NCBI GenBank assembly: GCA_963753435.1
Contig: CAVWCF010000001.1
Location: forward strand, 1,312,001 to 1,376,000
Reading direction: 5' to 3'
DNA length: 64,000 nt
DNA from: an uncultured Actinomycetota bacterium
GTDB taxonomy: Bacteria > Actinomycetota > Actinomycetes > CAVWCF01
The notes under the pieces were generated by a model. That model was not told the origin of the DNA and did no database searches. It saw only the letters and a program-made list of their open reading frames with translations. Below, in pieces: positions 15,816 to 18,562 of the stretch; position 1 is the first letter of the stretch; each line of letters opens with the position of its first letter. A program made the translations under genes and the position numbers.

Positions 15816-16346
15816 TCAGCGGGAGTAGACCGGCGCGATAACCGCACGCGCGAGCGTGTGGAAGGTCAATTGAAAGCCGACCGCGGCGGCGCGCGCATCC
15901 CTGCCGACCCCCAGTGACTCACTGTCCACGGCGTGTACGGCGAACAGGTATCGGTGCGGGCGGTCGCCCGGCGGTGGGGCGCTGCCGCCGTATCCGCCGT
16001 TGCCGAAGTCGGTTGGGACGTGGAAGGCCCCGGCTGGCAGTCCACCGCCGTCAGCAGCACCGGCGCCGCGCGCCAGCTCGGTGACGGAAACCGGGATGTC
16101 GACTGCGAGCCAGTGCCACCAGCCGCAAGCCGTCGGCGCATCCGGGTCGAAGCAGGTCACCGTGAAGGACCTCGTCGCCGCCGGGAAGCCAGACCAGGCC
16201 AGATGCGGGGACTGGTTGCCACCGTCAAGGACGAACTCCTGGCCCAGTTGTGCGCCGTCGACAACGTCGTCGCTGACAACCGAGAAGGCGCCGACCGGAG
16301 GGAGCAGTTCGTAGGGGTTCGGTGCCACCGGTCGCTGCAGATTCAC
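15816..16346 (-). CDS. YbhB/YbcL (PEBP, Raf kinase inhibitor-like) protein
   Basis: TCFDPDAPT..WWHW, GSAPPPGDRPHRY; GGAGG RBS. Confidence 0.92.
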   Translation of the reverse strand: MNLQRPVAPNPYELLPPVGAFSVVSDDVVDGAQLGQEFVLDGGNQSPHLAWSGFPAATRSFTVTCFDPDAPTACGWWHWLAVDIPVSVTELARGAGAADGGGLPAGAFHVPTDFGNGGYGGSAPPPGDRPHRYLFAVHAVDSESLGVGRDARAAAVGFQLTFHTLARAVIAPVYSR

Positions 16347-16361
16347 CTAGGTCCTCCCGCA

Positions 16362-16568
16362 ATAGGTAGCGGGGCCCCTCCACGTATGAGGTGCAGGGGC
16401 CCCGCTGTGCCGGATCTCCGGCGGTGAGTTGGGCTTGCGCCCGCTCTTCCGCCCGAGGCCGCGGCCTCGGCTGACGCGAACCCTGCGGATAACCGTCCGG
16501 GTTTCCCCGGAGGTTCCCCCTCACCGTTCCGACCTAAGTCTTCTGGTGCGGTCCCGCCGTCAGGCGAT
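16362..16568 (-). ncRNA. candidate structured ncRNA A (family not recognised)
   Basis: Downstream of a promoter-like motif; nested helices CGGUGAG/CUCACCG and UCCGC/GCGGA, GAAA and GCAA tetraloop hairpins; ends in CUCAUAC-loop hairpin; paralog at 17860-18030. Confidence 0.7.
16368..16406. repeat. conserved-loop hairpin copy 1
   Basis: AGCGGGGCCCCTCCAC-GTATGAG-GTGCAGGGGCCCCGCT. Confidence 0.9.
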
Positions 16569-16572
16569 GGGA

Positions 16573-16605
16573 GATTTCTAGGGGCTACCGGTCGATGCAC
16601 GCAAG
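16573..16605 (-). promoter_or_regulatory. putative promoter of ncRNA A
   Basis: TTGCGT-N18-TAGAAATC on minus strand; same spacing as 18035-18067. Confidence 0.65.
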
Positions 16606-16636
16606 GGGTCCGGAACAAGAAATTCCGATGAATCTC

Positions 16637-16713
16637 GTATCCACACTCTTGTCCACACGGCGCCTCGCATGTGGCATTGGTTCCTCCACATCGAGCCCAC
16701 AGCGTCATCAACA
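16637..16713. promoter_or_regulatory. DnaA-box-like array A
   Basis: GTATCCACA 16637, TTGTCCACA 16649 (exact Streptomyces-type box), TCCTCCACA 16682, GAGCCCACA 16693, TCATCAACA 16705. Confidence 0.6.
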
Positions 16714-16807
16714 AGCGGGTCGTACTCGGTTCGGCGTCGATCGTGACGAGACGCAGGCACCGTGTGTCGCTGCCAGGTTGGTCAAGCCGGTGCGGGCATT
16801 CTGATCC

Positions 16808-16842
16808 CCAGGCCCCTCCAGGTATGAGCTGGAGGGGCCTGG
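16808..16842. repeat. conserved-loop hairpin copy 2 (solo)
   Basis: CCAGGCCCCTCCAG-GTATGAG-CTGGAGGGGCCTGG, perfect 14-bp stem. Confidence 0.9.
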
Positions 16843-16869
16843 CTAGTCCGCAACTCTTACCCTGCCGTT

Positions 16870-17829
16870 GTGAGCAATCTCGAGTCACGCCCGGCGGAGA
16901 CCGACTGCCACAGCGACGCGACCGGCGCTGCGGAGACTCTGGCTCCACGCGAGGTGCCGCTGGGTGGACCGCGAGCACTGACCGTTCGCCGCACCCTTCC
17001 CCACCGTGACCGTCGCATGGTCGGGGCTTGGTGCTTCGTGGACCACTACGGCCCGGACTCGGTACACGACGGTGGAATGTTCGTTCCCCCGCACCCGCAC
17101 ACGGGACTGCAGACCGTTTCGTGGTTGGTCTCCGGTGAGGTGCTGCACCACGACAGCCTTGGTTCCGAACAACTGATCCGACCAGGCCAGTTGAACCTGA
17201 TGACGGCCGGCCGTGGCATCGCACACGCCGAGGTGACACCGGCCGGTAGCACCGAGCAGTTGCACGGGGTGCAGTTGTGGGTGGCCCTACCCGGCACCGC
17301 CCGCGACACCGCCCCCGCCTTCGAGCACCACGCCGAACTGCCGACTGTGGGCCTGCCCGGGTGCGTGGCCACCGTCATTGCCGGCGATTTCGCTCGCGTG
17401 CAGTCGACGGCCACGACGTTCACCGACCTGCTGGGGGTGGAACTCGACCTCGCTGCCGGGGCTGACCTGGACGTCCCAGTTCGGCCCGAACACGAGCACG
17501 CTTTGCTCGCGCTGGATGAGGACGTGGCGATCGGAACGGCAACCGTGCCCCGCGGCGCCCTGCACTACCTACCCCCGGGGCCGGATGTGATTCGAGTGCG
17601 CAGCCGGACGGCATCCCGGGTGCTCCTGCTCGGCGGGCTTCCATTCGACGAGACCGTCGTCATGTGGTGGAACTTCCTCGGCACCGATCACGACTCGATC
17701 GCCGCTGCCCGTAAGGACTGGGAGGCAGCCAGCCCACGGTTCGGCGAGGTGCCGGGATACGACTCCCGGCTGGCTGCACCCGCGTTGCCGGGGACCCGGC
17801 TCAAGGCCAGGGGCCGAAAGCGGAACTAG
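16870..17829 (+). CDS. pirin family protein
   Basis: VGAWCFVDHYGP, PPHPHTGLQTVSW, MTAGRGIAHAE, LHGVQLWVALP. Confidence 0.95.
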   Translation: MSNLESRPAETDCHSDATGAAETLAPREVPLGGPRALTVRRTLPHRDRRMVGAWCFVDHYGPDSVHDGGMFVPPHPHTGLQTVSWLVSGEVLHHDSLGSEQLIRPGQLNLMTAGRGIAHAEVTPAGSTEQLHGVQLWVALPGTARDTAPAFEHHAELPTVGLPGCVATVIAGDFARVQSTATTFTDLLGVELDLAAGADLDVPVRPEHEHALLALDEDVAIGTATVPRGALHYLPPGPDVIRVRSRTASRVLLLGGLPFDETVVMWWNFLGTDHDSIAAARKDWEAASPRFGEVPGYDSRLAAPALPGTRLKARGRKRN

Positions 17830-17859
17830 ATAGGAAAAGCCCAATCACGCCCGCTCAAC

Positions 17860-18030
17860 AAAAGGTAAGGCCCCTCCAAGTATGAGTTGGAGGGGCCTTA
17901 CTTTCGCGGCTTGCGCCACTGCTTCCGCTTCCAATACCCCCTGGCCGGATCCCTCCGGGCCGAGGCCCTTCCGGTTCTTGCCAGTCCCTTCAGCCGAGGC
18001 CTTCGGGTTTGGTGCACCTTCCGAGGAAGT
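17860..18030 (-). ncRNA. candidate structured ncRNA B (paralog of A)
   Basis: 5' hairpin then GCACCA, CUGG/CCAG and CCGGA/UCCGG helices, GGC-GCAA-GCC hairpin, CUCAUAC-loop hairpin plus U-tract. Confidence 0.7.
17865..17901. terminator. conserved-loop hairpin copy 3, probable bidirectional terminator
   Basis: GTAAGGCCCCTCCAA-GTATGAG-TTGGAGGGGCCTTAC flanked by AAAAG and TTT. Confidence 0.85.
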
Positions 18031-18034
18031 AGCC

Positions 18035-18067
18035 GATTTCTATCCCCTGCGGCGGAGGTAGGGCAAG
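18035..18067 (-). promoter_or_regulatory. putative promoter of ncRNA B
   Basis: TTGCCC-N18-TAGAAATC on minus strand. Confidence 0.65.
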
Positions 18068-18098: not shown

Positions 18099-18163
18099 AA
18101 ATCCCCAATGTCATACACAGCAATCCAGGGCATATCCCCATCATGTCCACAGCTTGATGCACA
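18099..18163. promoter_or_regulatory. DnaA-box-like array B
   Basis: AAATCCCCA 18099, TCATACACA 18111, ATATCCCCA 18132, ATGTCCACA 18143, TGATGCACA 18155. Confidence 0.5.
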
Positions 18164-18259: not shown

Positions 18260-18562
18260 CTACTTGGTCTTGGTCACTGAGGTGAACGCCCCCGTGACTA
18301 GCGTGAAACCGTCCTTGGCGACCTTGACGCTGCCCGCCGCGATCGAGTCGATCGTGCCGGTGATTCCGGTTGCCATCTTCTGGGTGCCCTCCCGGACACC
18401 GTCGGTGGTCTCAGCGGAGACGCCCAGGCCCGACAGGACCGTGAACGGGATCTCCATAGCCGCCAGGCCGGTCTTCTCGACCGCCCCCATGCCCTGACGG
18501 AAGATTCCTAGGAACGCCTGGTCGGCGCTGGTGCTGCTCTTCTGCTTCGTGCTGGTGGCCAT
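18260..18562 (-). CDS. hypothetical 100-aa amphipathic protein
   Basis: Strong AAGGGAGGT RBS, ATG, biased codons, own terminator. Confidence 0.8.
   Translation of the reverse strand: MATSTKQKSSTSADQAFLGIFRQGMGAVEKTGLAAMEIPFTVLSGLGVSAETTDGVREGTQKMATGITGTIDSIAAGSVKVAKDGFTLVTGAFTSVTKTK

Follow-up and report, generated by a model that had tools for sequence, protein, structure and literature searches.

We analysed a 64,000-nucleotide stretch from the genome of an uncultured Actinomycetota bacterium (GCA_963753435.1, contig CAVWCF010000001.1, positions 1,312,001 to 1,376,000; hereafter the window), in which three hairpins with the same seven-nucleotide loop lie within 1.5 kb. As listed in Table 1, hairpins 1 and 3 end two predicted non-coding RNAs, and hairpin 2 stands alone ahead of a pirin gene. 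All three had been reported by the initial annotation, made from the letters of the window, and each was found at its coordinates. Exact matches to the stem-loop pattern proposed there number 3 in the window, and none of 100 dinucleotide shuffles contains one; the loop-closing pair does change among C-G, G-C and A-T, and the outer stems vary yet stay paired. The common stem holds overall, except that hairpin 1 carries an internal mismatch (C·C on the plus strand, G·G on the minus strand) so that its right arm departs from an exact complement of GGCCCCTCCA. The loop sequence (GTATGAG/CTCATAC) has 51 occurrences in the 2.17-Mb genome, and only these 3 lie within a long stem. Since homologues have 1-4 parsed hairpins per genome and the three copies here are clustered, the hairpin is not the high-copy repeat that the same annotation had named as one refuting case; a repetitive extragenic palindrome or bacterial interspersed mosaic element (REP/BIME) is ruled out by the low copy number (3 in the genome). 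On this sequence comparison, the hairpins are genuine and under constraint, and they belong to an RNA family that is not yet catalogued.

The earlier suggestion that the hairpin belongs to RNA units was borne out by units 1 and 3. The R1 covariance model matches unit 1 at 16360-16580 with 66 bits (fold z -5.4) and unit 3 at 17856-18042 with 70 bits (fold z -3.8, with a terminator-like call), and it matches hairpin 2 with its end only (model positions 142-199); hairpin 2 has no RNA body. The ends of unit 1 were set from its promoter and its hairpin.

Table 1. Features of the hairpin locus (window coordinates)
Feature	Position	Strand	Remarks
Hairpin 1	16368..16406	-	loop CUCAUAC; 3' end of unit 1; class A copy, no GACAC
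Hairpin 2	16808..16842	+	body-less class B copy; predicted 5' end of P2 RNA, loop GUAUGAG
Hairpin 3	17865..17901	-	loop CUCAUAC; 3' end of unit 3; class A copy; terminator-like call
RNA unit 1, predicted structured non-coding RNA of ~205 nt ending in hairpin 1	16362..16568	-	covariance model R1, fold score
Promoter P1 of unit 1	16575..16604	-	TTGCGT, 18 nt, TAGAAA(T); motif kept in 103 homologous units
Four DnaA-type boxes upstream of unit 1	16637..16713	.	one perfect TTGTCCACA at 16649-16657
RNA unit 3, predicted structured non-coding RNA of ~172 nt ending in hairpin 3 and U tail	17858..18030	-	
Promoter P1 of unit 3	18037..18066	-	TTGCCC, 18 nt, TAGAAA(T)
Four weaker DnaA-type boxes upstream of unit 3	18111..18163	.	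1-2 mismatches
Predicted antisense promoter P2	16764..16802	+	GTGTC (WhiA-type GACAC on the other strand) at -45..-41; -10 hexamer CATTCT
Pirin gene, between hairpins 2 and 3	16870..17829	+	PF02678, PF05726
YbhB/YbcL-family gene, directly downstream of hairpin 1	15816..16346	-	PF01161, TIGR00481

Read on the CUCAUAC strand, the sequence upstream of the hairpin follows one order across the family: a cluster of boxes resembling TGTGGA(C/T)AA, an A-rich tract, a promoter of the form TTG(T/C)GC-18 nt-TAGAAAT, and the folded body. The -10 element TAGAAA, followed by T, recurs in about 100 promoters, which include the two in the window (16575-16580 and 18037-18042, minus strand) and those of homologues. 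A sigma-70 consensus scan of the window called no promoter at P1 or at the opposite-strand promoter P2, because both depart from the consensus. In the common form, the body measures about 170 nt to the loop and is built from a long stem closing a two-arm junction (both arms GNRA-capped), a second long arm with a GCAA cap, the terminal hairpin and a U-rich tail. Two-sided changes occur in 24 of the 35 consensus pairs when 50 of the 70 units of common size are aligned, a value reached by 0 of 500 shuffles and far above that of slid controls, with the caution that related sequences can beat shuffles and that the search itself held the core of the stem constant. In addition, GNRA tetraloops were counted at 234/274 on the CUCAUAC strand and at 1/211 on the opposite strand. 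Taken together, these results establish, at the level of sequence, the covarying fold and the strand on which it forms, and the sense RNA very probably represents a genuine RNA gene family. There is no conserved reading frame in the units: their lengths modulo 3 divide 39/29/35, the longest closed open reading frame is shorter than 10 codons in 43 of 103 units, and the alignment is rich in non-triplet gaps. A type I toxin-antitoxin system was rejected for want of a conserved small open reading frame in the sense RNA.

Across the family the RNA ranges from about 150 to 860 nt in length, by added arms. Near-repeats of one GCGA/GCAA-capped hairpin bring the RNA to 485-865 nt in family f16 (loci L155, L159, L160, L163, L164, L166, L191 and L275), a short tandem duplication (85 nt) of the RNA 3' end is found in L053 at 1503-1606, and tandem arrays of three to four RNA copies are present in G007 (C1, 1,889,459-1,891,672) and G053 (C51).

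When genome records were scanned for one arm plus the loop, exactly matched, at least 122 loci were obtained in records named as actinomycete bins; among the matches listed, these include Streptosporangiaceae, Jatrophihabitantaceae, Frankiaceae, Propionibacteriaceae, Jiangellaceae, Nocardioidaceae and Ornithinibacter, and a single short contig bears the label Limnocylindria. When the loop was not fixed, matches were obtained in 73 of 301 Actinomycetes genomes, and the covariance model gave matches, some of them weak, in 59 of 150. The loop-based pattern had none in 276 genomes of other classes, and the covariance model none in several well-sampled Actinomycetes families (f28, 0/9; f47, 0/8); re-tested genomes of match-free families yielded marginal partial matches only, in 2 of 5. 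No copies of the family were found in the viral, phage and plasmid sets. At the hairpin locus, neither Rfam 15 (gathering and E-value thresholds) nor ARAGORN returned anything relevant, and no description of the family was found in a literature search that lay outside most subscription papers and the supplements of the Ms1 paper and of preprints. The family, present in about a quarter to two fifths of the sampled Actinomycetes genomes, is absent from Rfam 15.

The box clusters upstream of P1 fit the DnaA-box consensus. With at most one mismatch allowed, 135 boxes were found in 74 upstream regions compared to 1.8 in shuffles; each unit has about 2-6 of them, placed 65-140 bp ahead of the -10 element and clear of it. 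Boxes of the same type also lie around dnaA-dnaN in the window's own genome, and the distance of the family loci from dnaA varies from about 90 kb to more than 1 Mb.

Metatranscriptome data are available from 17 runs, which represent a small share of the region, and 8 of the 17 were examined. Contigs from 5 of these 8 runs cover unit 1 in part, at depths of 2.5-11, and one RNA contig ends at 16366, the base of hairpin 1. In the same 8 runs the body of unit 3 is uncovered and unit 1 never reaches high depth. Transcription is compatible with these contigs, which neither establish nor exclude it. Contigs from 6 of the 8 runs also cover an open reading frame of 100 amino acids at 18260-18562 of the window (minus strand), for which no Pfam or NCBIfam family was found.

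A second promoter, P2, is predicted on the opposite strand, and in the window it belongs to hairpin 2 only. Its predicted start, 16809-16810, falls at the base of the hairpin, so the predicted RNA opens with the complementary hairpin and the loop GUAUGAG. Of 139 hairpins, 50 have GACAC at a distance of 49-55 nt beyond the loop, against a background of 0.0009 per position. Between GACAC and the hairpin, the opposite strand carries a YANNNT hexamer; over 53 sites, position -11 is A in 91% and position -7 is T in 68%. Of 103 sites, 68 have this hexamer 33-35 nt away from GACAC, compared to 24 of 201 hairpins without GACAC, and it shifts along with GACAC in 12 of 31 displaced cases. The far side of GACAC shows no conserved signal, and there is none of a same-strand promoter downstream of it; a U-tract that would end the antisense RNA is seen as a slight excess only (2.15 vs 1.49 A in 6 nt). 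GACAC, extended to GACACGCC, is the WhiA motif (PMC3781837, PMC13473873), and WhiA and WhiB sit upstream of the -35 element in an orientation and at a spacing that vary (PMC10243135). WhiA is encoded in the window's genome. On the strength of these positional patterns, P2 is probably a real promoter.

The two promoters tend to be divided between paralogues. Exactly one copy with GACAC is present in 15 of 18 multi-copy genomes, and 28 of 39 genomes with one retrieved copy carry GACAC, where the counts are of retrieved copies, more may exist in a genome, and the window's genome entered with one duplicate row. In the 10 genomes reached via body-less copies, GACAC stands at 49-55 nt in 0 of 27 parsed full paralogues and in 9 of 10 body-less copies. 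CUCAUAC is kept in 26 of these 27 full paralogues though their bodies and stems diverge, and the one deviant paralogue, in G604 (CUCAUGC), is still able to pair via G·U. Body-less GACAC copies were found in the window, in G007, in G103, in Streptosporangiaceae bins and in family f16, and their neighbouring genes differ.

The wobble pairs of the stem sort in the same manner. An A·C pair on the sense strand is a G·U pair on the antisense strand, and among the 13 loop-proximal pairs the P1-only copies have 44 G·U and 1 A·C (n = 137), the P2-only copies have 3 G·U and 10 A·C (n = 40), and copies with both promoters have 927 of 936 pairs Watson-Crick, with 83 unclassified hairpins left out of these classes and with kinship inflating the counts (by hand, about 5 independent A·C events in class B). 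Because the wobbles sort by class, each class seems to be selected to fold on its own strand: P1-only copies appear to be under selection for sense folding, P2-only copies for antisense folding, and two-promoter copies for both.

The initial annotation had taken the loop to be invariant, and this holds in part: CUCAUAC is found in most copies even with the loop left free in the search, and whole lineages carry other loops. At the 75 sites listed in Actinomycetes genomes (from 150 of 180 matches listed, the orientation of variant loops being set by the promoter), the loop is CUCAUAC in 42, CUCAUGC in 19, UGCCUAG in 6, CUCGUAA in 4, CUCUUGG in 2 and apparently unrelated in 2; CGCCUAG was recorded as another lineage-level loop. 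Metagenomes gave 115 hairpins, which, sorted by eye, comprise 82 with CUCAUAC, 11 with CUCAUGC, about 10 other family variants and about 12 unrelated-looking terminators. The loop is common to the copies within a genome and changes between lineages. In family f16, CUCAUGC is present in both paralogue classes in 7 of 7 genomes examined, and the stem types of the two classes stay distinct; in G309, also of f16, the two classes share CUCAUAC. A reading of the variant loops as a C-N-U anticodon series, all starting with CU, was rejected after promoter orientation gave UGCCUAG and rarer variants broke the pattern. YUNR is the U-turn motif of kissing antisense loops; it is present in the five lineage-level loops as CUCA, CUCG, CUAG or UUGG. 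GUAUGAG lacks it, as do some rare variants, CCCAUAC among them.

A partner for the loop was found within the RNA itself in one lineage, where 7 sequences have the exact complement of their own terminal loop at a neighbouring arm tip. At L289, L298, L330, L353, L357 (two copies) and L391, a GCAA-capped arm tip is altered to the 7-nt complement of CUCAUGC; judged by its complementarity, the altered tip is a possible intramolecular kissing loop. A full loop complement upstream was found in 0 of 282 CUCAUAC hairpins, and a search for covarying loop partners around dnaA (6 genomes) and within the RNA units themselves (13 units) detected none.

Several elements can be read directly from the alignments: the family, the covarying fold and its strand, the box clusters, the fixed geometry of GACAC and the -10 hexamer, the split of the promoters, the strand-specific wobbles and the identity of loops within genomes. 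In the interpretation that we favour, at roughly even odds, the hairpin would be the shared module of a two-gene sense/antisense RNA system, in which the RNA behind the DnaA boxes pairs loop to loop with the antisense hairpin RNA behind the WhiA box. Whether such pairing is what conserves the loop we judge to be equally balanced. P1 promoters behind DnaA-type boxes, firing with DnaA bound, would produce folded RNAs of about 170-205 nt ending in hairpins 1 and 3; P2, with WhiA bound at its box, would produce an antisense RNA starting with hairpin 2; the loops CUCAUAC and GUAUGAG would pair, and the antisense RNA would neutralise the structured RNA. At an ancestral single locus both promoters would face each other. 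A gene such as pirin landing behind the hairpin, or duplication of the RNA gene, would require two retained hairpins, one closing the long RNA and the other opening the antisense RNA, and this would give the arrangement in the window. The complement GUAUGAG, to which the initial annotation had drawn attention, probably matters, but as an antisense-RNA loop made from hairpin 2.

A more specific version, which we put forward tentatively and with the odds against it, is a chromosomal RNA switch that joins the two cell-cycle regulators of actinomycetes: DnaA would turn on a multi-armed scaffold RNA and a WhiA/WhiB-driven hairpin RNA of about 40 nt would turn it off by kissing the terminal loop in trans, one antisense mini-gene policing diverged paralogues. 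In the favoured interpretation, too, the long RNA might be a multivalent protein-binding scaffold, active in the replication phase and cleared at division; this is a guess and the least secure step, made because the GNRA-capped arms expand freely. If the favoured interpretation is true, it would amount to chromosomal kissing-loop control with a non-coding RNA as the target and with sense and antisense functions on separate loci, and to a direct RNA link between DnaA and WhiA that ties an RNA switch to regulators of replication and division.

A number of observations weigh against this sense/antisense interpretation, apart from the kinship behind the wobble counts. The RNA contigs carry no strand, end or level information and DNA may be present among them; another RNA contig crosses hairpin 1, and the contig depths of unit 1 (2.5-11) resemble those of neighbouring genes. 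The -10 element of P1 is without the usual T at -7. The WhiA motif is short, and in Streptomyces function does not go with a particular orientation of it (PMC3781837). Among the 18 multi-copy genomes, 2 have no GACAC copy by the strict motif and 1 has two, and several P2-only copies retain an RNA body. The full trans duplex of the hairpin 2 antisense RNA with hairpin 1 or 3 is worth only +5 to -6 kcal/mol net; since so little energy is gained, the contact would be a kiss and not a full exchange. Finally, single-copy two-promoter genes would stay complementary whatever their loop sequence, yet most keep CUCAUAC without this need; the loop is therefore probably under another constraint as well, and a loop-reading protein could supply it.

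Such a protein is the most probable of the alternatives, although we consider it unlikely: an RNA-binding protein or a nuclease would read the loop and stem of the sense RNA, with an anticodon decoy as a special case. It would account for the retention of CUCAUAC across many families, single-copy genes included, for the persistence of CAU, which a hand count puts at about 96 of about 103 family-like hairpins from metagenomes, and for a core stem that barely varies, though the search pattern fixed the core stem. It leaves the body-less copies at the promoter start and the antisense-type wobbles unexplained.

Less probable again is the suggestion, carried over from the initial annotation as a minor rival, that the hairpin is a DNA site for a site-specific recombinase, with inverted arms and a 7-bp overlap, and that single genes such as pirin were inserted with duplication of the hairpin. 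Single genes do lie between direct hairpin copies in the window, G606, G103 and G007, mismatched closing pairs are enriched among body-less copies (6 of 13 vs 7 of 185), copies within a genome share one loop, and a wide variety of genes lies next to them. However, 55 downstream open reading frames (1.5 kb flank only) contain no integrase family and one transposase domain, no copies on mobile elements were found among viral contigs, phages or plasmids, the strand-specific tolerance of G·U is a property of RNA, and every copy in the window has its own self-paired outer stem.

Two further proposals seem to us improbable to a similar degree. In the first, the loop is a small RNA seed for mRNAs, for example at GUAUGAG start regions as first suggested, and P2 is incidental. 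It can draw on the few of the 51 genomic GTATGAG matches that lie at start codons and on the fit of the loop to the YUNR motif, but the dnaA region (6 genomes) and the RNA units (13) offered no covarying target, the complements of several variant loops contain no AUG, and the GACAC copies are left unexplained. In the second, the DnaA-box cluster is the functional part, a datA-like titration site, and the RNA and hairpin mainly control transcription through the cluster. The number of boxes and their placement clear of the -10 element agree with this; a titration site, however, needs no covarying multi-arm RNA, fixed loop or body-less P2 copies, some full units have no boxes, and the distance to dnaA is not constant. 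Mimicry of the Met-tRNA anticodon loop, the leading idea of the initial annotation, is very improbable: CAU does persist in most copies, but there is no ARAGORN or Rfam tRNA call at the hairpins, the consensus fold has no cloverleaf, the host CAU tRNA loops read CUCAUAA in 3 of 3 and have unrelated stems, and whole lineages have CGU, CCU, CUU, CAA or GAU at the anticodon position.

Loop-loop kissing between an antisense RNA and its target is established for the plasmid pairs ColE1 RNAI/RNAII and R1 CopA/CopT. Like them, the present system would have promoters that converge, hairpin loops complementary to each other and a tie to replication control, and one partner has a YUNR-type loop. In contrast to the plasmid systems, the family is chromosomal, and neither plasmids nor phages gave a match; its target would be a non-coding RNA and not a primer or rep leader; and the antisense RNA would start at the 3' hairpin of its target, the functions are split onto paralogues, and the box is of WhiA type. 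The hairpin system would operate in the manner of plasmid kissing-loop antisense control without belonging to that group. CsrB and RsmY are protein-sponge RNAs with repeated short hairpins, and the present RNAs likewise have repeated short hairpins whose number varies between lineages; their loops, however, are GNRA (GCAA, GCGA, GAAA, GAGA) and not GGA. Caulobacter CcnA is reportedly a non-coding RNA tied to cell-cycle regulators; the comparison is by description only, the lineage is unrelated, and no mRNA target was found here. 6S RNA (RF00013) is similar in length to the common form (about 170-200 nt), but it was rejected: the genome has no RF00013 match, a chain of GNRA arms differs from the 6S rod with its central bubble, and the length here reaches about 860 nt.

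Ms1/scr3559 RNA (RF02566) is likewise a stand-alone structured RNA of Actinomycetes, but the hairpin locus has no RF02566 match, and fold and length differ. Its synteny is with a HAD hydrolase (PMC9130861). Identity with Ms1 was rejected: the HAD-IB/CpaE genes are at 1.282-1.284 Mb of C1 and the hairpin locus is at 1.328-1.330 Mb, about 45 kb apart. Directly downstream of the HAD-IB hydrolase (G000, C1, about 1,283,910-1,284,190) lies a gene-free stretch with GACACGCC ahead of a likely promoter. This stretch is probably the Ms1-like RNA of this organism, and the Rfam Ms1 model gives no score for it.

Two further observations concern the surroundings of homologous hairpins. At L006, L015, L016, L027, L029, L034 and L064, a second conserved element of about 45-60 nt lies about 100-230 nt past the hairpin; it has a C-rich loop and its own -10-like hexamer, stands ahead of dapA or a cobalamin riboswitch, and has no Rfam match in L027 and L029. 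In L015 and L016, the segment comprising the body-less hairpin and GACAC is inverted with respect to its flanks when compared with L029, L034, L045 and L067, and these flanks are dapA on one side and a periplasmic-binding-protein gene on the other.

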